Made by a program: the position numbers and the translations under genes | Sequence record: OZ335964.1 | DNA from: a phage | Direction: 5' to 3' (one strand) | DNA length: 64,000 bases | In this document: positions 31,697 through 56,724 of the stretch, in pieces | How the letters are laid out: every line of letters begins with the position of its first letter | Position numbering within the stretch: position 1 is the stretch's first letter | Notes under the pieces: generated by a model | Seen by the model: only the letters and a program-made list of their open reading frames with translations | Databases searched by the model: none | What the model was told of the DNA's origin: nothing

Positions 31697-31710
31697 ATTC
31701 ACCTCATTAA

Positions 31711-36353: not shown

Positions 36354-36667
36354 ACATAGCCCCCAACTACACGCATAACAAAGGTCTTGAGTTTATACCA
36401 GAAAGTTTCTTTTTTCAACTTTTCTTCTGCTTCTTTGATTTGCGCTGTTAACGCCTTAATGACGTGAGGATATACCACATCACGATCTGACGGCGTGGAG
36501 TAGTCGACCACAATACCTTTAGTGTCTGGATCGTATTCAACATTATGAATATAGACAATATGATGTTCTCCCTCTTCATCAACAATTATCAATTCCTGAA
36601 TAACTGTCTTCATTGCTTCTTGAATCAAGCCGTGTGCTTCTTCTAAACTGGTTGGTTTCTTATCCAT
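36350..36667 (-). CDS. hypothetical protein (105 aa) at the gene-40 position
   Basis: ATGA overlap with gene 41 start; GAGAGG SD; identity with gp40 not verified. Confidence 0.5.
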   Translation of the reverse strand: MDKKPTSLEEAHGLIQEAMKTVIQELIIVDEEGEHHIVYIHNVEYDPDTKGIVVDYSTPSDRDVVYPHVIKALTAQIKEAEEKLKKETFWYKLKTFVMRVVGGYV

Positions 36668-36688
36668 AATATAATCCTCTCTAGATAT

Positions 36689-36710
36689 GAAAAAGGGGCA
36701 CGTAGCCCCT
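36689..36710 (-). terminator. rho-independent terminator after uvsX
   Basis: Minus-strand hairpin AGGGGC-TACGT-GCCCCT followed by TTTTTC. Confidence 0.55.
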
Positions 36711-36722
36711 TTACTACCATTG

Positions 36723-37793
36723 TTATGCTAACATATCTTCGATTTCTTTGTCAACTGCTTCGTCGCTGATCACTTGCCCCAGCTTATAATGATCGTTGAT
36801 TGCTTCGTTAAACTTATCGTTTGTCAGAAGTGGTTTCCAGAACTCAATGCTATTGGTTTCTTTAGCACGGAACTTGCGTTCTTCGGTTTCCATCTCTCCG
36901 GTCTCCGTATTCAGGATTGAACGAGAATACCAGCCGTTTGACGGTTTCACTACCCAACCTAACTCTACAGCCAACTCCAGCAAACCGGAATAAGGATCGA
37001 TGCCACCGCTAAACGTTACGCTAATCGGGAACTTAGATTTTTCTTTAACGGTTCGTGATTTTTCCGCATTCAGGATAAAATCATAGCCAGTAATTTCGGT
37101 TCCTTCTTTCTGCTGACGACGACCAATAATGAAAACTTCATTGGCTGAATACATCGCGCCCGTACCGCCGGACATAACGGTCTTACTAAACATTTCTTGC
37201 GTTTCGTAAGTGTGGTTAATAGCGATGCACGGGATATCATTCATAGTCAGATATGGCGTCACCATACGGAACAAGCCTTTAAGTGCTTTAGCTCGCGTCA
37301 TATCCTGTGCGGATTTCTCATTAATCGCGTCTTCAACTTCTTTTTTACTTGCTAAGTTACCGATTGAGTCAATAAAGATGATCACTTTATCTTCACGGGT
37401 AATTTGCTCAAGCTGGTTCATGATTTCAAATTTAAGTTCTTCGATGTTCTTGATTGGAACATGCACCACGCGATCAGGATCTACACCCATAGATTCAAGA
37501 TAAGCGGATGTAATACCGAACTCAGAATCAAAGAACAAACACGCCGCATCAGGATTCTGTTTCATGTATGCACTAACGCAAGTTAATCCCATGTTTGATT
37601 TAAAGTGCTTAGACGGACCAGCAAAGAAAATCAGACCAGATTGAAAGCCTTTTTTAAGATCACCGGAAAACGCAATATTCAGCATCGGGATCTTAGTGCG
37701 AGTATTTGTTTTTTCGTTAAAGAAGCTGGATTTAGACAGTACCGCAGTAGTTTTCAGGGTAGAGTTCTTTTTCAGTTTTTCCAGTACAGACAT
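36723..37793 (-). CDS. uvsX: UvsX recombinase (RecA-like)
   Basis: 356 aa; Walker A GPSKHFKS and RecA-fold blocks; AGAGGT SD. Confidence 0.9.
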   Translation of the reverse strand: MSVLEKLKKNSTLKTTAVLSKSSFFNEKTNTRTKIPMLNIAFSGDLKKGFQSGLIFFAGPSKHFKSNMGLTCVSAYMKQNPDAACLFFDSEFGITSAYLESMGVDPDRVVHVPIKNIEELKFEIMNQLEQITREDKVIIFIDSIGNLASKKEVEDAINEKSAQDMTRAKALKGLFRMVTPYLTMNDIPCIAINHTYETQEMFSKTVMSGGTGAMYSANEVFIIGRRQQKEGTEITGYDFILNAEKSRTVKEKSKFPISVTFSGGIDPYSGLLELAVELGWVVKPSNGWYSRSILNTETGEMETEERKFRAKETNSIEFWKPLLTNDKFNEAINDHYKLGQVISDEAVDKEIEDMLA

Positions 37794-37804
37794 TATTAAT
37801 ACCT

Positions 37805-37993
37805 CTATTCAGTTAATCCGTAATACTTTAATTGCTTCATTGTTATTCGATCTTTGTAGTGCTCTTGAATTAACTTTTTCATCGCATCAACATCGATCGT
37901 CACAAATACTTCGTTGCTGTGATTTCCGTGAACTTTCTTGAAATGCTCTATGCCTTCCTCACGTTCACGTTTAATCTTTTCAATGTCTCTCAT
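37805..37993 (-). CDS. hypothetical protein (62 aa)
   Basis: Track ORF starts at GTG; first ATG is M14; only gene in the uvsX-43 gap. Confidence 0.4.
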   Translation of the reverse strand: MRDIEKIKREREEGIEHFKKVHGNHSNEVFVTIDVDAMKKLIQEHYKDRITMKQLKYYGLTE

Positions 37994-38054
37994 AGTATAT
38001 TTCTCACGTTGGCGGGTATCGTCACCCAACACCCGCCATTATACACACTTTATC

Positions 38055-39239
38055 TTAAATGTCAAACAGGTCAGTCAGAGAAGCAACTTTTTCATATTGC
38101 AGCTTTGCAGCCGTGGTAATGTTCTCCAGTGGTTTGACGAAAGTCTTATTAAACAACAAAGGCCAGTCTAACCACTTTAACACCTCGCTTTCAATTTCTG
38201 GAGGAATACGAGTACCGGACAACCAACCAAAACAGATTTCTCCAAACGGATTTCGATCTTTAAGCGGTACGATCATAACCTTCTCGCCTTCACGAATCGG
38301 ATCTAGTCCGAATTTTCGAGCATTACGATTATAACACAATACACTCTTAACCGCATACGGACAACCCTTAATCGGATACCCGTTTGAATCGCTGTATTTC
38401 TGTAGGTTGTTTGCAGATGATACCGCAGCAACCTCAAGATAGTCAAGTTTTCTAAACTCTTGCTCAAAAATACCGTAGTATTCCTGTAGCGATTCTTCCC
38501 CTTCCTGCAACATACGGCGAATACATTCTTTCAGTGATTTCTGACATGCTTTAGGGGTGGAGCTACGTTGCGTTTCCAAGCCCATGATTTTTAGCTTAGG
38601 TTCAGCAAAGCGCGTTCCTTCCATATCCCAAACATTAAGAGCATAACGCTTTTTGCCAGTCCAGAATCCACCGATACCCGCAGATTTCAACGGAGGACCA
38701 GCAATTGCCTCACGGTCCATAAACATCAAGTGCTCATAGTTATTCATGTACTCGCATAACTCGCGATATCCCTTGTCGATAATAGGTTCCATCCGATGTT
38801 TACCGAAATTATCAAGGAAGTCAACAAGTTTTTCGGTATCGTCGAAACGGTCTTCCCCGCCAACCTTATCAACAACATTGTTAACCAGCACATAAACGGA
38901 GTCAGTATCACAATAACGAACATATGCAAAATCAGTTGTTCCGCAAAGCTCGTTTAAGTATTCGTTAATCTTACGCTCAATCCATCTAATAGCGACCTGT
39001 CCAAATAGCGTAATCGCACTAGCATTACGCAGATCGTATAGGCGGAAACGTGGATTCCCAAGCGCGCCATAAAGGCTATTAATCAATACCTTACGAGAAA
39101 GCTGGTTTGTATTACATAAAACCGATTCGTTTTGACAATAGGTTAATAACTGCTTTAACTCATCTACAGACATTGACTCGAATTGTTCTAGCTGTTCGTC
39201 GGTGAAGTCTGAACGAACATCAATATTTTTAATATCCAA
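38055..39239 (-). CDS. 43: DNA polymerase gp43, C-terminal fragment (palm motifs B and C, thumb)
   Basis: Contains KILINSLYGALG (motif B) and YCDTDSVYV (motif C); begins at a TTG preceded by strong GGGGGTGA SD; no in-frame ATG nearby. Confidence 0.85.
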   Translation of the reverse strand: MDIKNIDVRSDFTDEQLEQFESMSVDELKQLLTYCQNESVLCNTNQLSRKVLINSLYGALGNPRFRLYDLRNASAITLFGQVAIRWIERKINEYLNELCGTTDFAYVRYCDTDSVYVLVNNVVDKVGGEDRFDDTEKLVDFLDNFGKHRMEPIIDKGYRELCEYMNNYEHLMFMDREAIAGPPLKSAGIGGFWTGKKRYALNVWDMEGTRFAEPKLKIMGLETQRSSTPKACQKSLKECIRRMLQEGEESLQEYYGIFEQEFRKLDYLEVAAVSSANNLQKYSDSNGYPIKGCPYAVKSVLCYNRNARKFGLDPIREGEKVMIVPLKDRNPFGEICFGWLSGTRIPPEIESEVLKWLDWPLLFNKTFVKPLENITTAAKLQYEKVASLTDLFDI

Positions 39240-39816
39240 TATTTCACCCCCATCAACGATTAATGTATAATTGCATATTCGCCATGATATTGTACTATAT
39301 GCCTATTATACGCGTCAATAGCTTCTTCTTCCGAATCAAAGTATCCTATATGATGCGTCTCGTGGTTTACTGTTATTCGAACACGCCATTTATCATAACC
39401 TCTCACCTTTGAGATTCCTTTGTATTTTGAAGTCCTTCCCTCAATAGAAATTGATCCATTGCTATTAATCTGATTTTCGTTATGAGAAGCCGCCCTTAAA
39501 TTTTCAATTCTATTATTGGTTCGAACTCTATCAACATGATCTATTTGAGTTTTTCCATTAATAGGTCTTTCCTTGCTAGGACAATGACCATGAAACATAT
39601 GGTATATCACACGATGAATTTTTCTAGCTTTGCCATCTATCCAAACTTTGCAATATCCTTGCTTGTCAGGAAACCTCCCGATCACCTGACCTTTTTGTGC
39701 TTGACTGCTGGTAGATATCTTTCTAATCAATATTCCATCGTCATATTGAAATAATCTGTGATAGAGTTCATAAAGTCTCTTATCTTCGTCATTGTAATGA
39801 ATAACTTGATACATCA
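39240..39816 (-). mobile_element. HNH endonuclease cassette interrupting gene 43
   Basis: Free-standing HNH ORF lies exactly between the two halves of an otherwise collinear B-family polymerase. Confidence 0.7.
39260..39814 (-). CDS. HNH homing endonuclease (HNH_3 + AP2 domain) inside gene 43
   Basis: QIDHVDRVRTNNRIENLRAASHNEN HNH motif; AP2-like KYKGISKVRGYDKWRVRI; ATG overlaps the stop of the polymerase N-fragment (TGATG). Confidence 0.85.
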   Translation of the reverse strand: MYQVIHYNDEDKRLYELYHRLFQYDDGILIRKISTSSQAQKGQVIGRFPDKQGYCKVWIDGKARKIHRVIYHMFHGHCPSKERPINGKTQIDHVDRVRTNNRIENLRAASHNENQINSNGSISIEGRTSKYKGISKVRGYDKWRVRITVNHETHHIGYFDSEEEAIDAYNRHIVQYHGEYAIIH

Positions 39817-41301
39817 CAACTCACCTCGCTTCTTCAATATTTCTTTTATTCGTTCAGCATTACGGTCACACGCCAACATCATGTTTTTGTACTGCTTACG
39901 CTGATCGAATACTTTCTTGATCTCAATCGGTATAATTCCATGAATATCTTTACGATACATCCAACCGTTAGGAGAACACGAGTATTCATCGCTAGGTCGT
40001 GGTGCTGTCTTATTAACATAATCATCAATTGGCGCGGCTTCAAACGATCCAGCGATTGTTTCCGGCGAAATGTTAACCTGTCGAATAATAGATGGGTACA
40101 GACTTGTTAAGTCAAAGCTCATCATCCAACGGTAAGCATTAGGTACTGGCTCTTTTACGAATGCGCCCGGATAAGTCTGCTTAGGCTGTATCTTATTTTC
40201 CGGTACTACTTTACCCTCAGCTTTCAGAGATCCGAAGATAATAGCATCCCATACTTTCATCGGGTTATAAACATGGTTAAATTTAATCTTTGCATAGAAA
40301 CATAGACTATACACAAGATCGATAAATCCACGCTTTTTATCAATCGCCAGCACACGATCAACGTCGCCGATGTTATAATCGATGTAAAGTTGATGGTTAT
40401 CATCACGCAATTTCTTTAACGGACCATCATAATCAACCTTACCGATTCCTGTCTCATATTCAGCAACATAATCTAATGCATATGTTGGTTGAGTCGTAAA
40501 GCTAAATTTCTTGTATAAGTCAATGTAGTCAAGGCTTTCGATCCCCATGATCGTAAATGCTTCACGCTCGTTGCCAAAATCATCCTGTGAGATTCGGGAT
40601 TTAATCTTACCGCACGGGCTTAGACGGTTAGCGGTTCTACTTCCGAACTTATTACTGATACGTTTAATGATATATGGAATATCGAATGTTTCTGTGTTCC
40701 AGCCAGTGAAACCAACGGGTCGGTTTTCCTCAAAGAATCGGATGTATTCTAACAGCAATTCATCTTCTGTATCATAGACGTTATAAACAACGCGCTCTAC
40801 AATATCAGGTCGAAGAATAGACTTTCTTGCTTCCCAGATTTCACCGTTTTTTCCTTTCAAATCAAACACAAAGAAACGATCATGTACGGAATCATAATGC
40901 GTAATTGCATCGATAGGATATTTCGCTTCTTCTGGTTTAGGAAATTCCGGTGCAGTGACCTCGATATCAACCCATGCTACACGGATTTTATTTCGGTCAT
41001 ATCGAATCTCGCCTTTATATGTATCGGACAGATAGGAGATGATAAAATCATCCATCCCTAGCGCCTCTTGCCCCATTTCCCCCATCTTTTTACGCCATTT
41101 GTTGGCCTCGTTCATAGATGGGAATTTTTTAGCAATGCAAGGCTTGCCATAGATATCTTTATAATTTGTAACCATACCAGGCGCGGCATGATGAAATAAA
41201 GTTGGCGTATATTCAACGTAACGCTCTTGTTCTTGTCCAGCATCATCAATATAACGCTCGTAGATCTTATCACCTACTCGCTCACATGACAGAAAATACA
41301 T
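39814..41301 (-). CDS. 43: DNA polymerase gp43, N-terminal fragment (3'-5' exonuclease + motif A)
   Basis: Exo I AWVDIEVT and polymerase motif A DLTSLYPSII; start set to M11 with GAAGGAG SD (track start is GTG). Confidence 0.85.
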   Translation of the reverse strand: MYFLSCERVGDKIYERYIDDAGQEQERYVEYTPTLFHHAAPGMVTNYKDIYGKPCIAKKFPSMNEANKWRKKMGEMGQEALGMDDFIISYLSDTYKGEIRYDRNKIRVAWVDIEVTAPEFPKPEEAKYPIDAITHYDSVHDRFFVFDLKGKNGEIWEARKSILRPDIVERVVYNVYDTEDELLLEYIRFFEENRPVGFTGWNTETFDIPYIIKRISNKFGSRTANRLSPCGKIKSRISQDDFGNEREAFTIMGIESLDYIDLYKKFSFTTQPTYALDYVAEYETGIGKVDYDGPLKKLRDDNHQLYIDYNIGDVDRVLAIDKKRGFIDLVYSLCFYAKIKFNHVYNPMKVWDAIIFGSLKAEGKVVPENKIQPKQTYPGAFVKEPVPNAYRWMMSFDLTSLYPSIIRQVNISPETIAGSFEAAPIDDYVNKTAPRPSDEYSCSPNGWMYRKDIHGIIPIEIKKVFDQRKQYKNMMLACDRNAERIKEILKKRGEL

Positions 41302-41383
41302 AATATAAACTCCTTCACTTACGAAAGACACTCATTATAGGGGAATCGACTTAGTTTGTCAATACCCCTATCCCATCAGTATC

Positions 41384-41746
41384 TTATCGCCCGATCTGAT
41401 ATTTCTCGATCAGCGTCCACTCTTCTTTCTGTTTAAAAGACAGTACACGGAAATTATTAACTTCTGTAGTTTCAAAATCACTATCAATCAGGGTGCATAG
41501 ATTCCACTGCGCAAGAAGTTTTGCAATATTATTACGGCGCAATTCATCTTCCCACGTCATCTTAACACTACGACCATCTAATTTCAACAACTCCTTGAAA
41601 TGAACGATGTAATAGCGCCCCTTCTTCTGGAGAATATGACAAGACTGATACAGTGTCTTGTCTCGATTGTTGGCAATGCCGCAGCGGGTTAAAGTCTCCT
41701 TAATTTTAAGGAAGTTTTCAGGATTAATCAAATTAATTTCAATCAT
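41384..41746 (-). CDS. regA: RegA translational repressor
   Basis: 120 aa; near-identical blocks to T4 RegA (CHILQKKG, YYIVHFKE, NNFRVISFKQK); AAGGTGG SD. Confidence 0.85.
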   Translation of the reverse strand: MIEINLINPENFLKIKETLTRCGIANNRDKTLYQSCHILQKKGRYYIVHFKELLKLDGRSVKMTWEDELRRNNIAKLLAQWNLCTLIDSDFETTEVNNFRVLSFKQKEEWTLIEKYQIGR

Positions 41747-41747
41747 T

Positions 41748-42326
41748 TTACCACCTTTCTATAATCTTTTTAAGTCGTTTCCTTTCTGTCTGATTCTTAG
41801 TAACACCCGCCAAAAGTTCATCGGTCGCATACGGTTTAATGTGCTTCAATAACTTGTCCATATATCCCTTTTCATTAGCCAAATCGAGATAAAATCGGGC
41901 GTCATCCATATTTACACAATATGCTTTCGCCACTGCCATTAAAACCAATTTTTGGTCTAATTCTTCTGTTAGTTTAGCCCATTTACCGTATCGTTTCCCC
42001 TTAGAAATACTCTGTAAGAGATAATCAAAATGCATTTGATCTGGGAGGCCATGACCGATTAAATTCATCACATACGCGCTATATAGGCAATCTGCGTGCT
42101 GGGAAAGAGCGGTATTAATCCATCTCTGATTGTATGCAGAATTATTCCCAACATTAACGCGCTGTTTATCTAAGGTGATATGATCCATCAGAGCAAATAA
42201 TGCATTGTCGGTTTTCTCGGTGAATGTGTCCGCTAGTTCAGACACTTTTTCCCAATCACGAGAGCGCCATGCAATTTCATGCTCGTTTAATTGTGTATCA
42301 TCTTCACCGAAAAATTGACCTAACAT
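41748..42326 (-). CDS. 62: clamp loader small subunit gp62 (by synteny and size)
   Basis: 192 aa between gp44 and regA; TAATG overlap with the gp44 stop. Confidence 0.65.
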   Translation of the reverse strand: MLGQFFGEDDTQLNEHEIAWRSRDWEKVSELADTFTEKTDNALFALMDHITLDKQRVNVGNNSAYNQRWINTALSQHADCLYSAYVMNLIGHGLPDQMHFDYLLQSISKGKRYGKWAKLTEELDQKLVLMAVAKAYCVNMDDARFYLDLANEKGYMDKLLKHIKPYATDELLAGVTKNQTERKRLKKIIERW

Positions 42327-43300
42327 TATACGAACTCCAATTCAACCATTAATTGCATTAACAAAAAGACAATGTGAATCTCTTTATCAGCCGCGTGCGC
42401 AAACATCTGATTATTTTCACCGATAATCTCGGTCAGTCGGATAATCGACGCTGGCTTAACTTGAGTATACAACTCATTATAAAGTTTCTTGACAAATTGA
42501 GCGTATGTGTTGGTATATCGCGGTGCTAGTTTACGCACATTAGCAAACTGTTTAGTTTTAAGTGCTTCCACCACATCGGTTACTTCGGTATTGCTACTTT
42601 CGATAACCATGCTCAATACGCCAGCATCAATTTTACCATGTTTAGCGTAGCGGTCCAAAAGTTTCATTACGCGCCGGAAGTCTGGGAAGTTCTGCTTAAC
42701 CAGTTCCGCCAATACGCGCATTTCTTCTACTGGCACACCTTCTTTATCAAGAATTGCTTTACACCGGACGATCATTTCTTTCATCATGCGAAGCTGATCA
42801 TCTTTGGTCGGAGATCCAAACGTGATTGGGTCAAATCGAGATCGCAACGCTGGGATAATACCTTCTAGATCATTTGCTGTAATGATGAATGTCACATTGT
42901 TTGAGTATGCCTCAGAGAAACTACGCAAGTGTCTTTGAGCATCAGCCAGCCCCGCTCGGTCATACTCATCGATAATAACAACTTTGCCTTTTTCTCGTTT
43001 TTCTTCATCGAGTGATACACTCTGCGCAAAGCGTGTAATCTCATCGCGGATAAAATCAATCTTACAATCTGCGCCGTTAACAAACAGATAATCAACACCC
43101 ACATCTTCGCAAAGCGCCTTAGCAACGGTTGTTTTACCAGTACCCGGCGATGGGCTATGCAGAATCATTGAAGGGATTCGGCCTTGCTTAACAATCTGCG
43201 CGAAGATCTTTTTATCTGCTTCCGGCAGAATACATTCAGAAATTGATTTCGGACGGTATTTCTGTTCCCACTGAAACTCATTTTCATTAACACTCAGCAT
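42326..43300 (-). CDS. 44: clamp loader large subunit gp44 (AAA+)
   Basis: Walker A SPGTGKTT, Walker B IIDEYD; start set to M6 with GAGAGGTGA SD (324 aa). Confidence 0.85.
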   Translation of the reverse strand: MLSVNENEFQWEQKYRPKSISECILPEADKKIFAQIVKQGRIPSMILHSPSPGTGKTTVAKALCEDVGVDYLFVNGADCKIDFIRDEITRFAQSVSLDEEKREKGKVVIIDEYDRAGLADAQRHLRSFSEAYSNNVTFIITANDLEGIIPALRSRFDPITFGSPTKDDQLRMMKEMIVRCKAILDKEGVPVEEMRVLAELVKQNFPDFRRVMKLLDRYAKHGKIDAGVLSMVIESSNTEVTDVVEALKTKQFANVRKLAPRYTNTYAQFVKKLYNELYTQVKPASIIRLTEIIGENNQMFAHAADKEIHIVFLLMQLMVELEFV

Positions 43301-43333
43301 ATAATCACCTCTCACAAATTACATCATTAAAAC

Positions 43334-43353
43334 GGGGAGTATTTACACTCCCC
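43334..43353 (-). other. intercistronic stem-loop between genes 45 and 44
   Basis: GGGGAGT-GTAAAT-ACTCCCC hairpin just after the gp45 stop; same stem sequence family as the promoter cassettes. Confidence 0.4.
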
Positions 43354-43365
43354 ACAAACATTATA

Positions 43366-44052
43366 TTAGTCGGTGTAGCTGGAGTCAAGGTCACACGCGA
43401 TCATATAAGATACGGTTTCACTTGCCAGCCATACAGCCTTACGGCGAGTGAAGCTCAGTTTGTAATCGCCGAAGTCAGTAGCAACCAGTTTCATGTTATC
43501 TTTACGAATAAAGAAATGGAAGTCTGCGGTTCCGGCATATTCGCCCATATCAAGACAAAACATCTCATTAGGATTATTTTTGTCAATCTCTTCCCAACCT
43601 TTGATCATCAGACGACCATCAATCGGTAGAAACTCAAGTCGATCCACTTTAAGCTGATTGCTCATTTTCATAAGCTGTTTCAGATCGTCGTTGCTCAGTT
43701 CGTAATCTACATCGCTTGCAGGTGGAGTAACTCTGCCTTTCGGTGATACGATAGCGGCAGCACTAGCACCAGGATAATTAATTTTCAGACGATCGTTAGA
43801 CACACGAATGTTACCAGTGCGGTTATCAACCGTAATATCTGCTTCATCACCTACCAGATTCAGAATACCCAGGAAAGAGTTAAGATCATAGATCCCGATT
43901 TCGTGTTCCAGTTCTTGATTCAGAGTCGCTTCACCATATACAACGTTTGTCATGTTTTTGGTGATCAGGACGTTTCCTTTTTTCAGGATGATACCTGGGT
44001 TAATAGCGGAAAAGTTTTTCAGGGTAGCAATGGTTTCTTTAGTCAGTTTCAT
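43366..44052 (-). CDS. 45: sliding clamp gp45
   Basis: 228 aa from the first ATG with AAGGTGA SD (track start is TTG); size and position match T4 gp45. Confidence 0.75.
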   Translation of the reverse strand: MKLTKETIATLKNFSAINPGIILKKGNVLITKNMTNVVYGEATLNQELEHEIGIYDLNSFLGILNLVGDEADITVDNRTGNIRVSNDRLKINYPGASAAAIVSPKGRVTPPASDVDYELSNDDLKQLMKMSNQLKVDRLEFLPIDGRLMIKGWEEIDKNNPNEMFCLDMGEYAGTADFHFFIRKDNMKLVATDFGDYKLSFTRRKAVWLASETVSYMIACDLDSSYTD

Positions 44053-44082
44053 CAAATCACCTTTATCATGTTAATCAATTAA

Positions 44083-44460
44083 TTACGGGTTTACTTCGTG
44101 CTCGTTTTGAATCTTTAGCATTCTTTCGATAAATTTTTTCTCGGCTTCCTTGTCGGAAGAGTGAGTATACTTCAATCCAATGTAAGCTGTCAAGTATTGT
44201 TGCAGAGCATAGACAGTAACAGGATTCTTTGCGGTCTTTTTGCCGTCGAGATATACCAGATCACCACGAACATCAAACGCAAGTTTACGACGAATTACAT
44301 CATCAACAAATTTATCTAGGACAAAATACCACTCAATACATTCTATCCCGTGACGGTAGTTCATTACATCATTATCTTTGATATAGTCAAACGGAATATG
44401 ACATAATTTACGATTTTGTAGGATGAATAGCATTTGTTCTTTTAAGCCCATACGTTTCAT
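44083..44460 (-). CDS. hypothetical protein at the rpbA position (possible RNA polymerase-binding protein)
   Basis: Immediately upstream of gene 45; start placed at M8 after the upstream stop; identity by synteny only. Confidence 0.4.
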   Translation of the reverse strand: MKRMGLKEQMLFILQNRKLCHIPFDYIKDNDVMNYRHGIECIEWYFVLDKFVDDVIRRKLAFDVRGDLVYLDGKKTAKNPVTVYALQQYLTAYIGLKYTHSSDKEAEKKFIERMLKIQNEHEVNP

Positions 44461-44464
44461 TCTA

Positions 44465-44842
44465 TCACTTCCCATCAGCAATTGCGATCAGACGAGTTAC
44501 TACTACGCTAGCGGCTTCAATCAGCAGTTCATCGGTGTCAATCTGATAACCCTTTTCGAGAATATCTTTACCACGAATAGTTTTAGCGCCTTTAGCAATT
44601 GAATCATCGTAATACTTGCGCATTGCCGCGATCCATTCTTTTTGCACCATATCATCAATATGCGCATACAGTTCAAAGCGTGCTTGCTGCGGGATAACCT
44701 TCATTTTAGCTTTCTCACTTTCCGGCATTTGCAGTACCCACGCTTTACGGATCTTGTTCATTGCTCGGTCAAATTCGAGGCTGGTTTTCTTGTTCTGAAT
44801 GTCTGCTACAGTAATTTTAGCCAGGTTTGCGGAAGTAGTCAT
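44465..44842 (-). CDS. hypothetical protein (125 aa)
   Basis: Track ORF starts at TTG; M6 ATG has GGAGA SD. Confidence 0.45.
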   Translation of the reverse strand: MTTSANLAKITVADIQNKKTSLEFDRAMNKIRKAWVLQMPESEKAKMKVIPQQARFELYAHIDDMVQKEWIAAMRKYYDDSIAKGAKTIRGKDILEKGYQIDTDELLIEAASVVVTRLIAIADGK

Positions 44843-44872
44843 AATATTAATCTCCAAAATAAAATCAGTATA

Positions 44873-45103
44873 TCACGTTCTAAAGTTTGTTGCAACCCCA
44901 GCATCAGGGTAATCAAGTTTATCAAAGTTGGGGACCAGCATAAACTCATGATGACGACAAGACAACATTTTTGTTATGTCTTCATCGCTGTATATGCTGT
45001 TTTTCATATCCCCCATACTAACTACATATTCTTCACCGGAATATAGATTGATTAATGTATACAATTCTAACTCCGGCTGCGTTACTCTGTCAAATGTTAA
45101 CAT
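44873..45103 (-). CDS. hypothetical protein (76 aa)
   Basis: Track ORF; weak SD; overlaps the gp46 3' end by 14 nt. Confidence 0.4.
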   Translation of the reverse strand: MLTFDRVTQPELELYTLINLYSGEEYVVSMGDMKNSIYSDEDITKMLSCRHHEFMLVPNFDKLDYPDAGVATNFRT

Positions 45104-46772
45104 TCATTTCAGTGAATCGCCCACGTTTAACCATCTTGAGATGACGGCTAAAATCATCAGGGTTATGGTCACGATGGCTGATAATATACACGTTATCATC
45201 TAACTTGTCAATGATGGAATCAAGTGCTTTTACGCCTTGAACGTCGGTCGCTCCATCATAAATTTCGTCGAGTACCAACAAAGAAATATTAGTACCAGAT
45301 ACCTTACCAGCAACATCACGCCATGTAAAGAGCATCGCAAGATCAATACGTGCTTTTTCGCCTTGACTGAATGATGTATACGAAAACGATTCACGCCCCC
45401 GTGATTTGATTGTTTCGTTAAACTCTTCATCTAGCGTAAAGATATAATCTGCTTCCATGATATCAAGATAATACGCAATCCGATCATTGAAATATGGAAT
45501 ATATTTCTTGACGATAGACGCCTTAACACCGGAATCCTTCAACATTTCTGTTACAAATCCACGATGATATTTTTCAAGAACTAGCTTTGATTTTTCATTA
45601 GTAATCTCTACCAGTTCGTGTTCCAGTTTAGCAAGTTCTTCGGAATTGTCAACCCTTTCTTTTTGTAATTCCTGAATTGCTTTCTGGATCTGTTTAGCAC
45701 GACCTACAGATGCCGTTAAATTCGCTCTCTGTGACTCTATAGCGCGTTTAATTTCCAAGACCTTAGTTTGTGCTGTCTGGAAAGAATTGGCTTTCTCTGC
45801 GTATTCTACGCGTTTCTCGTCAATAAGAGACAGTTTATGTTCCGCTTGTGCTTTTTGTTCGCGTACAGCCTGATCATTACCCTGAATGATCGGTTGTGTG
45901 CACGTCGGGCAGACCCCGCCTTTCTCGTGCATATGGATAACACGATCAAAGTTCTGGATCTGTGCACCAATCTGTGCGATAGCCGTATTAATTTTAGCCA
46001 ATGCCGCGCTAGGATCTTCCGGCATAACAACAGCCAATAGCTCATCGGTCAAGCGCGTTTCTTCGGCTTTGAATGCTTTAGCCGATTCTACCTCTTTATC
46101 ATACATATTCTGCAAACGCTGTAGATTCTCGGCACTCGCCTTGCTAGCGTCTTCTATGTACTTTTTATGAGTGTTGATTTGTTGCTGAACGTGATTAGCT
46201 TTCATTTCCTGCATTTGGATATTCTGGGTAATCTCGCGCACATACGCTTTATTCAGTTTATCCATTTCGCCTAGCGTAGCAATATCAAGCAAATCCTCGA
46301 CCAGTTTACGGCGACCCGCTGCCGGAAGACTCATAAACGGAACATAACCAGCAGTACCTAAAACAACGATCTGTTTAAAGCTGGCTAGGTTCATGCCTAT
46401 GATACCTTCAAAATATTCCTGAAAGTCTTTGGTGCTTGCGCTCTCGTCGATCTTTTGACCGTCGCGATGCACTTCGAATACTTCCGGTTTTTGACCACGT
46501 TTGATATAAAACTCTTTCCCGTCCAGTTCAAACCAGACTTCGACTAACAGTTTCTTTTTGTTGACGCTGTTAATCAATTGGCCTTTCTTGATACTACGAA
46601 ACGGTTTACCGAACAACACAAAGCAAAGAGCCTCGATCATGGTCGATTTACCAGCACCGTTAACACCAGTGATTAGTGTCTTTTTGAATCCGTCTAGCTG
46701 AATCTCAACAGGTTCAGCACCCACGCTCATTATATTTTGATAGCGCAAGGTTTTAAAATTTAACTTTGCCAT
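45090..46772 (-). CDS. 46: recombination endonuclease subunit gp46 (SbcC/Rad50-like ATPase)
   Basis: Walker A GVNGAGKST, long coiled-coil middle, C-terminal Walker B LLVLDE; start set to M6 with GGAGTGG SD (560 aa). Confidence 0.85.
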   Translation of the reverse strand: MAKLNFKTLRYQNIMSVGAEPVEIQLDGFKKTLITGVNGAGKSTMIEALCFVLFGKPFRSIKKGQLINSVNKKKLLVEVWFELDGKEFYIKRGQKPEVFEVHRDGQKIDESASTKDFQEYFEGIIGMNLASFKQIVVLGTAGYVPFMSLPAAGRRKLVEDLLDIATLGEMDKLNKAYVREITQNIQMQEMKANHVQQQINTHKKYIEDASKASAENLQRLQNMYDKEVESAKAFKAEETRLTDELLAVVMPEDPSAALAKINTAIAQIGAQIQNFDRVIHMHEKGGVCPTCTQPIIQGNDQAVREQKAQAEHKLSLIDEKRVEYAEKANSFQTAQTKVLEIKRAIESQRANLTASVGRAKQIQKAIQELQKERVDNSEELAKLEHELVEITNEKSKLVLEKYHRGFVTEMLKDSGVKASIVKKYIPYFNDRIAYYLDIMEADYIFTLDEEFNETIKSRGRESFSYTSFSQGEKARIDLAMLFTWRDVAGKVSGTNISLLVLDEIYDGATDVQGVKALDSIIDKLDDNVYIISHRDHNPDDFSRHLKMVKRGRFTEMNVNI

Positions 46773-47016
46773 TAATCCACTCCGCAATCACACATTCCAT
46801 AATATTAAATGCTAACACATCTTCATCAATGTTGTAAACACTTGCTGCCTTCACTTTAACTAATGTGTCTCTGCGATCTGGCAGCATGATCACATAATCC
46901 AGTGTCGCCGGATCATATGTCATAAAGGGATCAATGTAAATCCCTTTATTCAATGCCAGATATTCGCGAAGACCTTCTATAACCCTGTGTCTAAGGTAGG
47001 TCATCGATAGAATCAT
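46753..47016 (-). CDS. hypothetical protein (87 aa)
   Basis: ATGA overlap with upstream ORF; lies between genes 47 and 46. Confidence 0.45.
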   Translation of the reverse strand: MILSMTYLRHRVIEGLREYLALNKGIYIDPFMTYDPATLDYVIMLPDRRDTLVKVKAASVYNIDEDVLAFNIMECVIAEWINGKVKF

Positions 47017-47609
47017 TTTAGTTTATGTTCCTCTAAAAATTCTTCAATTTCACCTTGCAGGTCTTCCGCTTGTTGTTCCAGAATATCGCGAAATTCACCT
47101 ACAGTCAAGCGATAATCACACTTCACCAGTCGATGTGGGAGAATATACCCTTTATACATCGTCTCTGACGCTTCCAGGAATACCCCACTATGCATGACAG
47201 AGATCCAACCTGTTAGCGTCAATGGAGTATTCGGAAAATAATACTTGCTGGATTGTTTCCACTGGACGAAAGCACCATATACAATCGGATTATATTCACC
47301 AACCACACTCTTAATAATGGCTTCTACTTTGTCTTTTACAAATACGCCAATGTCCATAGTTACCATCAAATCCTGTGGATGAATCACTTTAAGGTAACGA
47401 CGATAACCGTCATCATACCACATCTTAACCACTGGCTGACCCCACATTTTAGCAATACGCGCTTTCAGATAGCCATAGATCGGATTCTTGCAATGTGATT
47501 GTTTTAGTGTGTATGTGTGCACCAATTCAATAAAATGTTCCATTACCAGCGAATCAGAATCAGCCGCGACCATAGTCGTATTCATAATATGTTCCTCGTT
47601 CAATTTCAT
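47013..47609 (-). CDS. hypothetical protein (198 aa)
   Basis: Track ORF; no recognised motif. Confidence 0.5.
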   Translation of the reverse strand: MKLNEEHIMNTTMVAADSDSLVMEHFIELVHTYTLKQSHCKNPIYGYLKARIAKMWGQPVVKMWYDDGYRRYLKVIHPQDLMVTMDIGVFVKDKVEAIIKSVVGEYNPIVYGAFVQWKQSSKYYFPNTPLTLTGWISVMHSGVFLEASETMYKGYILPHRLVKCDYRLTVGEFRDILEQQAEDLQGEIEEFLEEHKLK

Positions 47610-47877
47610 ATTGTTTCAGGTCTTCTAAAAGCTCATCCATTGCTTGTTTCAGCGTATGACGTAGCGTAAAGTAATAGCTTTCATCAAATTCTATTTCTGC
47701 GCGAGGGATAGAGCGAAACTTACACTTAACGGTAGTATCAGTGAGTCGCTTTTCGACCATCATCCGAACTTCTTCATGCTCTTTGGAATACCATACATCA
47801 ACGGAGATCCCCTTACGTCGAGCAAACATAGGCAAAGCTGCATTAAATTCTACTACTTTTTGTGCAAGTGTTTTCAT
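47560..47877 (-). CDS. hypothetical protein (105 aa)
   Basis: Track ORF trimmed to M10. Confidence 0.45.
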   Translation of the reverse strand: MKTLAQKVVEFNAALPMFARRKGISVDVWYSKEHEEVRMMVEKRLTDTTVKCKFRSIPRAEIEFDESYYFTLRHTLKQAMDELLEDLKQYEIERGTYYEYDYGRG

Positions 47878-47878
47878 T

Positions 47879-48124
47879 TTACATACTCCACGATTCACGG
47901 GCAATCACATTCTGGGTAATATCAGCAATCTTACGGGATACGATGTTTGTTAGCCCCTCTTTGGTGATATTTTCACGATCAAATGGGATTTCGTCATGAG
48001 TCCATAACCCAGAGTTAGACCGAAATGATAGCATATACTGACCATCTCGCACAACCTCAAATACATGGATCTTTGTGAACTTCGCTAAACCTTCGTTGAT
48101 TTCTTTCAGTGCATTAGTAATCAT
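47879..48124 (-). CDS. hypothetical protein (81 aa)
   Basis: Track ORF starts at TTG; M5 ATG has GGAGG SD. Confidence 0.45.
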   Translation of the reverse strand: MITNALKEINEGLAKFTKIHVFEVVRDGQYMLSFRSNSGLWTHDEIPFDRENITKEGLTNIVSRKIADITQNVIARESWSM

Positions 48125-48150
48125 AACAACCTCCAATCAATTTTTTAGAG

Positions 48151-48179
48151 AGTATAACGGGGATTTCTCCCCGCGTCAA
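48151..48179 (-). promoter_or_regulatory. early promoter/stem-loop cassette (variant)
   Basis: Minus strand reads TTGACG + CGGGGAGAAATCCCCG hairpin + TATACT, directly after the gp47 stop. Confidence 0.5.
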
Positions 48180-49205
48180 CTAACTTTTTGCGCTATTTAC
48201 TTCGGCTAAAAGTTCATCAGAAATACGCTTGACCGCCGCAAGTTCTTCTGGTTCTAGGTTTTGTTCTTCCAGATATTCATAGACCATCTGAATAGTGCTT
48301 TTAACTTCAATAACACCTGTTTCCTGTGATGCGCTACTCTCCAGCTTATGGACCACTTTTAGCTTGTGCACAACGGCCTCTAACGCGCTTTCTAACTTAG
48401 TTAACCCATTATCAGCGACCGTTGCGATAAGACGCACACTAAGCCCCTTAAAGCGTTCTACATCGATTTTATCATCTGACGGGTAAGTAATACGCACATG
48501 ATAAGTTTTGTCATTCTGAATAAACTCTTTTTTGTGTGTATCGGTATCGAATACCCAAAAACCACGCGGATCGTTTTCGTCACCCGCCGTTAGTGTGTAT
48601 GGTGTACCAATATATGTTACGTTACCGCCATCGCTGATAGTATGAAAGTGACCGGAAAACACTTCACGGTATTTCTTGAGGAAGTCCGCGCTATAACCTT
48701 CGGATTTTAGCCCTTTATAGAAATAGTAACCGGACAATTCCCAATGGCCTACACAATATTCGCTGAATGAGTTTTGAATAAACTCTAAAATCTCTGATTT
48801 ATTGTCATCACAAAACCACGGGAACAGATCAAATGATACACCATCAAAGGTAACTGTTTCCGGCTTATCAATGACCTTAATGCAATCATACTGGCTTAAC
48901 ACTTCACGCGGTGCGTTAGGCTGGATCTTATTGCGCTTAAACATATCATGATTCCCGACCGTGATATAACAAGTAATACCAGCCTCTTCCAGTAACGGGA
49001 TGACCTTAGTACGGTTAAATTTCATGGTTTCATGAGTAATTGCTTTTCGGCAATCAAACCAATCCCCTGTTTGAATCCATGTCTTAATATTATGCTCTTT
49101 GGAGTATTCAACCGCTTTCTTGATGGTATCAAGAATATACTCATGCACCCACGGATCATCGCCACCGATACCAGTATGCAGATCACCTAAAAGCAAAATT
49201 TTCAT
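48180..49205 (-). CDS. 47: recombination endonuclease subunit gp47 (Mre11-like phosphoesterase)
   Basis: Calcineurin-like phosphoesterase motifs LLLGDLH, GNHD, GHWE, GHFH; strong collinearity with T4 gp47. Confidence 0.85.
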   Translation of the reverse strand: MKILLLGDLHTGIGGDDPWVHEYILDTIKKAVEYSKEHNIKTWIQTGDWFDCRKAITHETMKFNRTKVIPLLEEAGITCYITVGNHDMFKRNKIQPNAPREVLSQYDCIKVIDKPETVTFDGVSFDLFPWFCDDNKSEILEFIQNSFSEYCVGHWELSGYYFYKGLKSEGYSADFLKKYREVFSGHFHTISDGGNVTYIGTPYTLTAGDENDPRGFWVFDTDTHKKEFIQNDKTYHVRITYPSDDKIDVERFKGLSVRLIATVADNGLTKLESALEAVVHKLKVVHKLESSASQETGVIEVKSTIQMVYEYLEEQNLEPEELAAVKRISDELLAEVNSAKS

Positions 49206-49255
49206 AGTCTCTTCCTCTCTTCGTTTTCGATGCTCTCACTATATCACAGAAAAAT

Positions 49256-49290
49256 AAAAAGGGAAACCCCTTTCGGAGTCTCCCTTATAA
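49256..49290 (-). terminator. possible terminator (weak stem, strong U-tract)
   Basis: Minus-strand short GC stems followed by TTTTTATTTTT. Confidence 0.35.
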
Positions 49291-49295
49291 AGCCA

Positions 49296-49583
49296 TTACA
49301 GCATACTTAATACCGTTTGCCGTGTACTGACCCACATAGCAGAAAGCAGTTCTGGCGTGTGTGGCTGTTTGTAGATATCACGTAACTTTCCGATAGCGTA
49401 GATATACGCATCACGGTTATCATCGATGATAGCTTGTTCAGCCCACCGCTTAAGGCGTGCAATCTCTCGCGAGTTCTTACGCAAGATCTTTTCCGCTTTC
49501 TTAGCGGCTTTCGCCTCTAGTTCTGCTTGAACTTTGTCTACTTCATTCACTACAATCTGGTCATGTTGTTCATCGTAAGTCAT
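49296..49583 (-). CDS. hypothetical protein (95 aa)
   Basis: ATG with AAGGAA SD. Confidence 0.45.
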   Translation of the reverse strand: MTYDEQHDQIVVNEVDKVQAELEAKAAKKAEKILRKNSREIARLKRWAEQAIIDDNRDAYIYAIGKLRDIYKQPHTPELLSAMWVSTRQTVLSML

Positions 49584-49584
49584 A

Positions 49585-49818
49585 TTATTTTCCTTCTGGG
49601 ATATAGTCGATGATTAAAGAAAATTCATCTTCTGATACATTATAGCTATGTGAGATTGTACCCGTAAAGACCTCAAGATCCGGTGACTTGATATTACACG
49701 GATCGATAATCACCGGAACGCCGCAATCTCTCAAAAATAATTTGGCGAAATACGGCACAAGGTCAGTTTCAAACTCTGCTTCTTCCAGCAAACGGGAAAT
49801 GTTAATTTTCAATCTCAT
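49585..49818 (-). CDS. hypothetical protein (77 aa)
   Basis: Track ORF; overlaps the gp55 3' end by 17 nt. Confidence 0.45.
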
Positions 49819-50335
49819 AAAATTGGTCCAGGCTAGGCAATTCCTCGGTCAATACATCTTCAACCTTTGGCGCTTTCGGTTTATTGACCGATTCCTCGTA
49901 GTTGTTGATTTTATCGTAAATGTCCTGTATGAATGCCTCATCCGCAATCTGGCACATATCAGCGTCGCGTTCGTCATATACATGATGCACAAAATATTTG
50001 TATTTTGCGGCTGTCGCTGTTCTTTCTTTTTTAATGCGCTGCACAAAAGCATTAAAGCACGCTTGCGTAATGTAAGCATGAGGATTTTTATACTTTGTCT
50101 CGTCAAAATTAATCAAACCCTTGACCGCCGCTTCGATTCCGTCGTCGATCATTTCTTCGCGCCATGTTTGACTATAGCCAGAAAAGTTAAAACGCCGTGA
50201 TAGATTTTTAGAGATTTGCATAATTGCTAGACCGATTTGGTCGCTCATTGGCACTTGCCGACCTTCTGCTGCAATTCGTTGTTTCCAACGGCAAATTTCT
50301 TCGTAAAGCTCTTTATTGTTTACATAATCAGACAC
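49802..50335 (-). CDS. 55: late-transcription sigma factor gp55
   Basis: Conserved blocks [50 protein letters not shown]; initiates at GTG with GAGGGTG SD, no in-frame ATG upstream. Confidence 0.8.
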
Positions 50336-50346
50336 TTCGCACCCTC

Positions 50347-50370
50347 GCTATTATTTAGGAAATAACCCTT
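50347..50370 (-). other. stem-loop with GAAA tetraloop in the gene 55 leader
   Basis: Minus-strand AAUAGCCC-GAAA-GGGUUAUU just upstream of the gp55 SD. Confidence 0.3.
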
Positions 50371-50375
50371 TCGGG

Positions 50376-51845
50376 CTATTCCCCATTACCATTATACTTT
50401 CTTTGCTTAGTTATCCACACTCTAACCATTTCTACTGATTCGCCGTCAGACGGATCAAGAGTTTTTCCTTTTTTCTTCATGCGGTACTTAAATCCGTTAA
50501 ATCTTGCATTCTCTTGCTCGTTAAAGTCGAACATCTTTTTAAATGATTTTCGCCCTTTACGCTCACCACATTCTAGCGGAATCATTCGGTCTGTTATTAC
50601 ATTGGCATTAGGTAGAAACGTTTTTAGATAATCCACCAACGCCCAATCAGGAACATATAGATTAACATTCTCCTTGCTCTCGTTGTCTCTCAGGTTACAA
50701 CGCAAACATAATTGAAATGCTGGTTCCAGATAATCAGACACATGACGCGCTTTCAAAAACTCGTTTGTCGGGAGATCACAACTATTAGCAAGACCTTTTA
50801 AAATATCAATCTCCCATCGTTGAGGGTTAAAGCTGAACATCACAGCAACATTTTTATGATGAATGTAAGAGTTAAGACCATAAGATCCGTAAGGTATCCG
50901 CTCACCAATACCATTTGTGCACGCTTCTCGGTCCCGATTCACGGTATAAATGAAGTCATCACCACATTCATTTTTAACCATATCAACAAGACGTTCAAAG
51001 GTATTGTTTGTTTCTGACTGGTGACGCGACCATCGTTCAGAGTCCGTCATAAGGATGATGTTAACTCTATCTGTATTTTTATACTCTTTGAAATATAGTC
51101 TGGATTCTAGCGCACTCGGAACAAAATCGCAATTTGCATAGTATCGTAGATACTTCCCACTATATGTATCAAAGAGATTTGCACATGCTATCGTAACCTT
51201 TTTAAAGTCTCCCCACGTACCGTGTTTGTTATCGTTCAAGAAAACAATTTTCGACCCATTCTTCCGGTGTCCTTCGTTATGTTTTACCATAACGTTGATT
51301 TTCTTCTCTAATAACGCCTCATAAAGCCCTCTAAGCGAAGAATCGATCATATCAGTACCATCCTTCGCACTTTCTATCTTTTCTTTGATAGCGGACTTCT
51401 CAGAGTCTTTTAGAACTAAGTTCTGTAGGCATTCCGATTCGTCGGCGATTGGTTCGCAATGCTTCGTGATAAGTTCAAGATTAGACTTAAACGGATACTC
51501 ATTAAATTCAACCAGTTGAGGAACTTCATCAATGTAAAGAGCATAATCACCAAACATTTTTGAACGTTCCATATTAGATAACGCTGTATGTGTAATGAAT
51601 ATCACATCAGCACCGTCTTTAACTGATTGCATTATCGACGCTTGCACTGTCTTAAGGCTTCTTAGTCGTGTGCTATCAATCAAGACAGCACGACCGCCCA
51701 TTCTTTTAAACTTATTGTAAGATTGTTCACTTAAAACACGAGATGGCGAAGCAATAACCGCTTTTTCTTTTGTCTCTAGGACGTGGGAAAGTATAGCATC
51801 AGTTTTCCCCGCCGCTGGCAATGCGATTAATGTTTCAATCTTCAT
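50376..51845 (-). CDS. P-loop NTPase of unknown function (489 aa)
   Basis: N-terminal Walker A ALPAAGKTDA (residues 9-18) and Walker B ALYIDEV (~110); Cys-rich C-terminal half; no T4 counterpart recognised at this position. Confidence 0.6.
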   Translation of the reverse strand: MKIETLIALPAAGKTDAILSHVLETKEKAVIASPSRVLSEQSYNKFKRMGGRAVLIDSTRLRSLKTVQASIMQSVKDGADVIFITHTALSNMERSKMFGDYALYIDEVPQLVEFNEYPFKSNLELITKHCEPIADESECLQNLVLKDSEKSAIKEKIESAKDGTDMIDSSLRGLYEALLEKKINVMVKHNEGHRKNGSKIVFLNDNKHGTWGDFKKVTIACANLFDTYSGKYLRYYANCDFVPSALESRLYFKEYKNTDRVNIILMTDSERWSRHQSETNNTFERLVDMVKNECGDDFIYTVNRDREACTNGIGERIPYGSYGLNSYIHHKNVAVMFSFNPQRWEIDILKGLANSCDLPTNEFLKARHVSDYLEPAFQLCLRCNLRDNESKENVNLYVPDWALVDYLKTFLPNANVITDRMIPLECGERKGRKSFKKMFDFNEQENARFNGFKYRMKKKGKTLDPSDGESVEMVRVWITKQRKYNGNGE

Positions 51846-52132
51846 TAGAAACCCTTACGTCGTGCTTTCTGGCATTTCTTGATCATTTTATCAGAAATTT
51901 CGCGCTTAGGTGCAATCTCTTTCACACCGAAAGCACTAATGCCAAATTCAGAGAGAATATATTCAACCAACAATTCACGCACACGCGCTTTACCGATATT
52001 CACGCCGTTATTTTTCAGATATGTCTGGCCTTCGACTTGCATCAGATCTAAATCTGCGTCGGTAATATTGATTTCTTCCATGCGCCCAAATCGAGAATAA
52101 ACCATGTGTGCGATTGCATTGTGTACTAACAT
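51845..52132 (-). CDS. hypothetical protein (95 aa)
   Basis: Track ORF starts at TTG; M7 ATG has GAGGAA SD. Confidence 0.45.
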   Translation of the reverse strand: MLVHNAIAHMVYSRFGRMEEINITDADLDLMQVEGQTYLKNNGVNIGKARVRELLVEYILSEFGISAFGVKEIAPKREISDKMIKKCQKARRKGF

Positions 52133-52153
52133 AATATATTCCTCACTCAAGAA

Positions 52154-52312
52154 TTACTTAATGATACTTACTTTACCAGATCCATGACAATGAGCGCAAC
52201 ACCCATCACCACGCAATCCTGTTCCGTTACAGTGTTTACACTTCTTCAACGGTAAAGCCATTATAGCAAATAAAGCAATAATGAATACCGAAACTAAATT
52301 CTCAATAATCAT
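52154..52312 (-). CDS. small membrane-anchored zinc-finger protein (52 aa, 2x CxxCxGxG)
   Basis: Not in ORF track; GAGGG SD; MIIENLVSVFIIALFAIMALPLKKCKHCNGTGLRGDGCCAHCHGSGKVSIIK = TM helix + two DnaJ-type CxxCxGxG repeats. Confidence 0.4.
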   Translation of the reverse strand: MIIENLVSVFIIALFAIMALPLKKCKHCNGTGLRGDGCCAHCHGSGKVSIIK

Positions 52313-53044: not shown

Positions 53045-53045
53045 A

Positions 53046-53870: not shown

Positions 53871-53882
53871 AATATATTCCCC

Positions 53883-54347: not shown

Positions 54348-54351
54348 AATA

Positions 54352-54876: not shown

Positions 54877-54886
54877 AATAATCACC

Positions 54887-55532: not shown

Positions 55533-55574
55533 ATTTGATTCTCCTGTAAAGTTGTATCTCGTCTTGATGAATAT

Positions 55575-55603: not shown

Positions 55604-55607
55604 GCAT

Positions 55608-56135: not shown

Positions 56136-56152
56136 ATTCACCTCACACATTA

Positions 56153-56695: not shown

Positions 56696-56724
56696 GTTGT
56701 CCTCTCGTTGTTTTCGATGTGAGC

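Follow-up and report, generated by a model that had tools for sequence, protein, structure and literature searches.

The locus considered here poses the question of whether a T4-related phage whose cytosine-modification genes are missing from their usual places has lost them or carries them elsewhere. It lies at positions 36723-50335 of a 64,000-nucleotide stretch of phage DNA from sequence record OZ335964.1, referred to below as the window, and runs from uvsX to gene 55. In T4, two intervals of this run hold gene 42, for dCMP hydroxymethylase, and the genes for the DNA beta- and alpha-glucosyltransferases (beta-gt and alpha-gt). Both intervals lack these genes in the window, and the genus Krischvirus, to which the window is assigned, very probably lacks the T4 pathway to hydroxymethylcytosine (hmC) and its glucosylation throughout the genome and has ordinary cytosine in the DNA that it replicates and packages. 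The first-pass annotation of the window had proposed a phage with non-glucosylated, possibly unmodified cytosine DNA, and this proposal is supported by the absence of the genes, by the avoidance of palindromic sites, and by the literature on relatives. The cytosine-DNA state of RB49-type T4 relatives is already documented, and ordinary cytosine DNA of this type has been exploited in generalized transduction and Cas9 targeting work; on the question raised by that annotation, the analysis adds little that is new.

Two T4 slots between uvsX and gene 55

Sequence comparison assigns the window to a Krischvirus genome, that of an RB49-like or 'pseudo-T-even' relative of T4. In a megablast search with positions 36000-51000, 60 phage records matched; in 59 the match spanned 80% or more of the query, with identities that were almost all 95-99%. 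These 59 belong to the RB49-like coliphages (genus Krischvirus) and include W115 (97.6%), SAP (97.5%), and RB49, whose 97.1% identity extends over 95% of the query. The window is collinear with the complete RB49 genome throughout and mostly 94-97% identical to it; in the alignment, positions 1-20227 correspond to RB49 143292-164018 and positions 20228-64000 to RB49 1-41730. It shares with its RB49-like relatives the gene order, a 62-amino-acid open reading frame (ORF) between uvsX and gene 43, the block of a-gt.4, a-gt.5, and 55, a gene 56, a dam gene that adjoins nrdC, and the lack of 42, gt, alc, and denB among the genes identified or annotated. It differs from RB49 in an HNH-split gene 43, three further HNH insertions, a JSE-type allele of gene 56, and the lack of an HNH-AP2 gene between 47 and a-gt.4. 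All genes from uvsX through 55, as well as gene 56 and dam, lie on the minus strand.

The recombinase gene uvsX (36723-37793; PF21134, 4.7e-35; PF00154) encodes a protein with 63% identity to T4 UvsX and, in the T4 annotation, forms the left border of a slot that holds segA, beta-gt, 42, imm, and imm.1. The sole ORF between uvsX and gene 43 in the window, at 37805-38032, encodes a small Krischvirus-specific protein that matches phrog_12120 (7e-42). This match is limited to residues 14-75, so the product is probably a protein of 62 amino acids, the counterpart of RB49p025, with its true start probably at an ATG at 37993. The 62-amino-acid ORF has no match in Pfam, NCBIfam, or T4 (tblastn against T4 positions 15000-45000, the segment also used for the T4 identities of the replication genes below). 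The T4 slot for beta-gt, 42, and imm therefore reads, on sequence grounds, as closed up to uvsX, one genus-specific ORF, and then gene 43. The first-pass annotation had likewise placed one small ORF alone in this interval, and that observation stands. Its grouping of imm with the cytosine-modification genes does not, imm being a superinfection-exclusion gene, nor does its treatment of gene 43 as one gene, which here consists of 43A and 43B with an HNH ORF between them.

The second T4 slot contains 47.1, alpha-gt, mobB, a-gt.2, a-gt.3, a-gt.4, and a-gt.5 (T4 annotation). Its left border in the window is gene 47 (48180-49205; PF00149), which encodes a Mre11/SbcD-like nuclease subunit with 56% identity to T4 gp47, and its right border is gene 55 (49802-50335), which encodes the late sigma factor (61% identity to T4 gp55, E=6e-69; the RB49 annotation agrees). 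Gene 47 is followed by a 90-bp spacer (49206-49295; window/RB49 alignment break at 49206/49202) at the site where T4 has 47.1, alpha-gt, mobB, a-gt.2, and a-gt.3 and RB49 has an HNH-AP2 endonuclease gene, according to their annotations. Beyond the spacer lies the orthologue of T4 a-gt.4 (DUF2654; 49296-49583; 44% identity, E=1e-14 by tblastn; PF10849, 5.8e-23; phrog_951), which is not a glucosyltransferase. It is followed by the orthologue of T4 a-gt.5 (DUF5491; 49585-49818; 32% identity over all 72 amino acids, E=3e-9; phrog_1169, 3e-29), whose match to PF17595 (3e-4) is under the Pfam cut-off. These two genes adjoin gene 55 in T4 as well. The two small ORFs that the first pass had counted in this interval are thus present, but its description of them as unrelated fails. 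Because both are orthologues of T4 genes from the same slot, 47.1, alpha-gt, mobB, a-gt.2, and a-gt.3 are simply missing, and the slot is empty rather than refilled.

T4 orthology is found on both flanks of each slot. The intervening replication and recombination block (41384-48136; tblastn and RB49 annotation) comprises regA, 62, 44, 45, rpbA, 45.2, and 46, along with small Krischvirus-specific ORFs that match PHROGs without an assigned function. Identity to T4 is 65% for regA, 42% for 62, 53% for 44, 33% for 45, 37% for rpbA, and 51% for 46, and the parts of gene 43 are 55-58% identical to T4 gp43. The closed-up arrangement of the slots is also kept in more distant metagenomic relatives.

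Modification genes and restriction sites across the genus

Homologues of gene 42 and the glucosyltransferase genes, which the first-pass annotation had allowed might lie elsewhere in the genome, were sought in three sequences, and none was found: the window, RB49 in full (164 kb, reassembled from four pieces for the searches), and the 100 kb of W115 that lie beyond the part syntenic with the window. With T4 gp42, alpha-gt, beta-gt, and imm as tblastn queries, nothing significant was returned from the window (best E=0.22; best for gp42, E=1.1). The same queries gave a single match, between gp42 and td, both in complete RB49 (23% over 144 amino acids, E=0.009) and in the remaining 100 kb of W115 (E=0.004). 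For the DNA alpha- and beta-glucosyltransferases, no tblastn match was significant in the window, RB49, or the W115 sequence (best E 0.2 or worse).

The match between gp42 and td in RB49 is, judged from the alignment, the expected superfamily relationship. RB49 Td matches Pfam Thymidylat_synt at 1e-84 and carries the motif GLPFNVASY, with Asn. Asn at this site denotes a dUMP-specific thymidylate synthase, and Asp denotes a dCMP hydroxymethylase. The gp42-related match in RB49 is thus a td gene with the dUMP-type Asn, and not a gene for dCMP hydroxymethylase. As a separate observation, RB49 Td (L004 43171-44403, outside the window) is 410 amino acids long, and its Pfam match falls in two stretches around a mid-enzyme insertion of approximately 140 amino acids. 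The annotations of RB49 and W115 include td, cd, frd, gene 1, denA, nrdAB, and tk; 42, gt, alc, and denB are not listed in them, and no sequence search was aimed at alc or denB. Set beside the T4 glucosyl-hmC system (gp56, gp42, gp1, alpha-gt, and beta-gt, with alc, denB, and arn), the window has the flanking orthologues from uvsX to 55 in the same order and shares gp56 and Dam, and its relatives also share gp1, cd, td, frd, and denA. Unlike in the T4 system, gp42, alpha-gt, and beta-gt are not found, alc and denB are unlisted in the relatives' annotations, and restriction sites are avoided.

Restriction-sensitive DNA is expected to lose recognition sites, whereas the glucosylated DNA of T4 is not. 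Counts of six-base words were compared with expectations from a maximal-order Markov model, and absence was counted among words with an expected count of at least 3. In the 64-kb window, the median observed/expected ratio is 0.68 for palindromes versus 1.00 for non-palindromes (Mann-Whitney p=7e-19), and 18 of 59 palindromes are absent, as are 8 of 1979 non-palindromes. The 164 kb of RB49 behave alike, with a palindrome median of 0.69 and 20 of 62 palindromes absent (non-palindromes, 6 of 2008). In the syntenic 15-45 kb segment of T4, the palindrome median is 0.92 and none of 39 palindromes is absent (non-palindromes, 3 of 1745). In the window, palindromes with a C or G are avoided more strongly (0.59) than those of A and T only (0.87). 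The avoidance extends to CCWGG, observed 22 times versus 65 expected, and to GGCC, with a ratio of 0.44. Palindrome avoidance of this strength is the signature of a lineage with unmasked cytosines.

The same avoidance determines how the cytosine state could be assayed. The window contains zero sites for EcoRI, HindIII, BamHI, PstI, KpnI, NcoI, SacII, XhoI, and BspEI, and the complete RB49 genome contains 0-2 sites for each of these nine enzymes; 30 kb of T4 contain 13 EcoRI and 24 HindIII sites. Digests of the EcoRI/HindIII/BamHI/PstI type would mislead, because DNA without sites would not be cut and would falsely appear modified. A digest test needs four-base cutters such as HpaII (CCGG), HhaI, and AluI, for which the window holds 130, 147, and 133 sites, respectively.

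Published work on relatives points in the same direction. RB49 has served as an unmodified T4-like control that lacks hydroxymethylase and beta-gt and contains neither hmC nor glucosyl-hmC, and its DNA alone was cut by HpaII and NheI in that comparison (Yaung et al., 2014; PMC4041780). Alleles of 42, alc, and denB are listed only for T-even, JS98, RB69, CC31, Acinetobacter, and 44RR types, and alpha-gt is listed for T-even types alone (Petrov et al., 2010; PMC2993671, Table 4). A 2025 survey scores Krischvirus as positive for dCTPase and denA and negative for hmC, denB, ndd, and alc (PMC12115623, Table 4). Krischvirus TB34 has canonical cytosine, with no modified nucleosides by high-performance liquid chromatography-mass spectrometry (HPLC-MS), and the genus is reported to be without synthase and glucosyltransferase homologues (PMC13390438, 2026).

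A genus-wide explanation and its alternatives

These observations would be explained if 42, alpha-gt, and beta-gt, together with alc and denB, T4's tools against cytosine DNA, were absent genus-wide rather than relocated. Canonical deoxynucleoside triphosphates would then be made via nrd, cd, td, frd, gene 1, and tk, as in relatives, and cytosine DNA would be packaged. Protection from restriction might come from the near-complete loss of six-base palindromic sites combined with Dam methylation of GATC. gp56 might be kept for the hydrolysis of dUTP and dUDP, which would keep uracil out of the DNA and provide dUMP to Td, rather than for hmC supply, and its activity on dCTP would probably be weak or balanced by other enzymes. 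The isolate itself is presumed to behave like its 97%-identical relatives.

Two genes that the first-pass annotation had singled out, a retained gp56 dCTPase and a Dam-type methyltransferase, are both present. The gene 56 homologue (31178-31702; dCTPase/dUTPase family) has 40% identity to T4 gp56 (E=1e-42) and matches phrog_173 (7e-33). Its Pfam dUTPase_2 match is below the cut-off, and a PDB sequence search with gp56 returned chance-level matches only, with no clue to specificity. The allele is of the JSE type and 56% identical to RB49 gp56; as a cassette with an HNH gene (30269-31702), it is common to phages JSE (92%) and G37-3 (96%). The Dam-family N6-adenine DNA methyltransferase (62192-63004) matches PF02086 (7.6e-30; 104.9 bits versus a cut-off of 22) and TIGR00571 (149.5 bits versus 114.85), carries DPPY at residue 179, and agrees with the RB49 dam annotation. 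It lies at a different locus from T4 dam, and its family membership predicts a GATC specificity. GATC is not avoided in the window (366 sites, observed/expected 1.02); the ratio is 0.37 in T4 15000-45000, though both phages encode Dam.

The presence of gp56 and Dam is uninformative either way, because gene 56 is quasi-core for its dUTPase role and a dam gene is found in T4 too. Only four giant phages, which have host-like dUTPases, are without a listed gene 56, whereas phages that lack gene 42 do have one (Table 4), and the dUTPase function is called essential (PMC2993671). RB43 and RB49 are likewise described in a 2021 review as retaining DenA and gp56 homologues despite canonical DNA (PMC8056088).

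Several points weigh against ordinary cytosine DNA in this isolate. If gp56 is a true dCTPase, its retention would sit badly with the phage's need for dCTP. Only 64 kb of the isolate are visible, and the other ~100 kb are judged from relatives alone. Homology searches would miss a modification enzyme of unrelated ancestry encoded by one of the many ORFs that have no assigned function. Finally, the DNA of Krischvirus SAP was reported to contain approximately one-third 5-hydroxymethyldeoxycytidine (5-hmdC) and two-thirds alpha-gentiobiosyl-methyldeoxycytidine (alpha-gentiobiosyl-mdC) and to be sensitive to the modification-dependent enzyme BrxU (PMC13390438).

The alternative that survives best, though still unlikely, leaves cytosine in place but adds to Dam a sparse, motif-specific methylation such as N4- or 5-methylcytosine in a small number of motifs; the cytosines would then be unmodified only to a first approximation. 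RB49 annotates two more putative DNA methyltransferases outside the range of the window, RB49p143 and RB49p189, the former with matches to MTS-, Eco57I-, and N6_Mtase-type domains. RB49p189 has no Pfam methyltransferase match, however, and neither gene is in the window. HPLC-MS detected no modified nucleosides in TB34 (PMC13390438), and the methylation-sensitive enzyme HpaII cuts RB49 DNA (PMC4041780). The avoidance of CCWGG also speaks against self-protection of the Dcm type.

Hypermodification of cytosine by a route without a gp42 or glucosyltransferase homologue, as reported for SAP, is very unlikely. The two modified nucleosides and BrxU cleavage of SAP argue for such a route, and many ORFs of the window, being without a Pfam family, could accommodate it. 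However, SAP is 99.96% identical to the unmodified TB34, its modification profile is that of seven T6-like Tequatrovirus phages of the same collection, and its authors found neither pathway genes nor informative single-nucleotide polymorphisms (PMC13390438). RB49 and TB34 DNA are experimentally unmodified, and the ORFs near nrdD are goF/Frd.2-like paralogues rather than enzyme folds. Avoidance of C/G-containing palindromes would not persist under glycosylated hmC, and the T4 segment shows none. The deposited genomes of SAP (OZ034687.1; 165,332 bp) and TB34 (OX001802.1; 165,220 bp) are 112 bp apart in length. Given the Tequatrovirus-like profile, this 112-bp difference, and the palindrome avoidance, the SAP result is more likely due to the mixing or exchange of samples than to an undiscovered pathway. 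The avoidance of C/G-containing palindromes thus provides sequence-level evidence that bears on an unexplained report and favours a sample problem. A SAP-like replacement of cytosine by hydroxymethyl- and gentiobiosyl-methylcytosine, with its pathway encoded among the ORFs without an assigned function, is very unlikely.

Least tenable is the placement of 42 and glucosyltransferase genes in the isolate's ~100 kb beyond the window, perhaps within a hyperplastic region of T-even origin: Krischvirus genomes are mosaic, and the window differs from RB49 by four HNH genes gained, one lost, and a replaced gene 56 allele, so accessory content does vary between isolates, but no such genes occur in complete RB49 or the remaining 100 kb of W115, two surveys report the genus without them (PMC12115623, Table 4; PMC13390438), hmC DNA also needs functions of the alc/denB type that the genus lacks, and the extreme palindrome avoidance points to a lineage long in possession of restriction-cuttable DNA. 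Genus-wide absence of the T4 pathway is the best explanation.

The split polymerase gene and neighbouring genes

The gene 43 region (38055-41331) is divided into 43A, an HNH ORF, and 43B, and the two cistrons together cover PolB. 43A (39814-41331; PF03104, PF00136) encodes the N-terminal polymerase part, with the exonuclease domain and motif A (DLTSLYPS). It aligns to RB69 gp43 residues 4-504 and is 98% identical to RB49 gp43 residues 1-489. 43B (38055-39239), identified by alignment to gp43, encodes the C-terminal part, with motif B (KVLINSLYG) and motif C (YCDTDS), and begins with a TTG downstream of the ribosome-binding site GGGGGTGA. This part aligns to RB69 gp43 residues 515-902 and is 93% identical to RB49 gp43 residues 503-893. 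The break between RB69 residues 504 and 515 falls at what we take, from the domain limits of the RB69 structure, to be the tip of the fingers domain. Between the two parts lies a free-standing homing-endonuclease ORF of the HNH_3 type (39260-39814; 184 amino acids; PF13392, 3e-13; phrog_99, 7e-48), whose ATG overlaps the stop codon of 43A (TGATG). A group I intron was considered as the cause of the interruption and rejected, as an Rfam scan of the whole window matched no family.

The HNH insert in gene 43 is absent from all 60 Krischvirus records, and the nearest HNH by tblastn among 50,697 phage records has 46% identity. Phage kvi has a different interruption of gene 43, further upstream. The arrangement of 43A, HNH, and 43B recurs in two Logan assemblies (SRR23924984 and SRR23924983; 94% collinear DNA identity) and in one ENA contig, and the HNH homologues at the same site in the Logan and ENA contigs have 89% and 82% identity, respectively. 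The intact motifs, together with the recurrence of the allele in independent assemblies, suggest that 43A and 43B assemble into an active polymerase. Assembly of a two-part gp43 into an active polymerase has been shown for Aeromonas phage 25 (PMC2988022, citing Petrov et al., 2010).

Many Acinetobacter, Aeromonas, and Providencia phages have gp43A proteins of approximately 500 amino acids. With the recurrence in assemblies, this makes the split here a new member of the known split-gp43 type (PMC2988022). The 43A length of approximately 500 amino acids matches that of the split gp43 of Aeromonas phages 25 and 44RR and of Acinetobacter phages such as Ac42, in which a free-standing homing-endonuclease gene may or may not accompany the split; 43B is here approximately 395 amino acids long. 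Aeromonas phage 25 also has a free-standing endonuclease gene between 43A and 43B (PMC2988022). Unlike in the Aeromonas and Acinetobacter systems, the endonuclease here is HNH_3 rather than seg (GIY-YIG), neither an untranslated spacer nor a group I intron is present, and the host genome belongs to a coliphage genus whose deposited genomes have an intact gene 43 or, in kvi, another interruption.

Three more HNH genes of the window are absent from RB49. An HNH_3+AP2 gene precedes gene 39 (23426-23989, minus strand), a NUMOD4+HNH_3 gene follows gene 61 (32747-33310, minus strand), and an HNH/NUMOD3 endonuclease gene (30325-31254, plus strand) is convergent with gene 56, whose 3' end it overlaps. 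Conversely, the HNH-AP2 gene that RB49 carries between 47 and a-gt.4 is missing in the window. The pairing of a homing-endonuclease gene with a strongly divergent allele of gene 56 may resemble T4 segF/gene 56, a case of intronless homing and localized marker exclusion; the neighbour of gene 56 here is of the HNH/NUMOD3 type and on the opposite strand, unlike the GIY-YIG enzyme SegF.

The larger unannotated ORFs at 50376-61071 and 63004-63435 were considered as candidate modification enzymes and rejected. Pfam gives a weak DEAD-helicase match for 50376-51845 and nothing convincing for the others, and most are goF/Frd.2-like paralogues by PHROGs. The ORF at 50376-51845 (minus strand; 489 amino acids) lies directly after 55, is the counterpart of RB49p044 (phrog_2467), and is also found in the ENA relative; the weak DEAD-box helicase match is its sole match in Pfam, and NCBIfam gave nothing for it, for the HNH protein, or for the small ORFs. 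Six goF/Frd.2-like paralogous ORFs lie on the minus strand at 52568-54885 and 59252-61071 (phrog_5347, phrog_622, and phrog_8944). Internal duplication is seen in two of the six, a tandem array of four lies between nrdH and nrdG, and none exceeds the Pfam cut-off.

The G+C content of the window is approximately 40%. ARAGORN found zero tRNA genes in the 64 kb, and the absence of tRNA genes is a trait of the genus (PMC11162368; PMC7552041). The part of the window least like RB49 is that of the long-tail-fibre genes (1-11049, plus strand), where identity is 88% over positions 1-9579 and 71% over 9793-10493, with a gap between. This divergence of the tail fibres is consistent with variation in host range.

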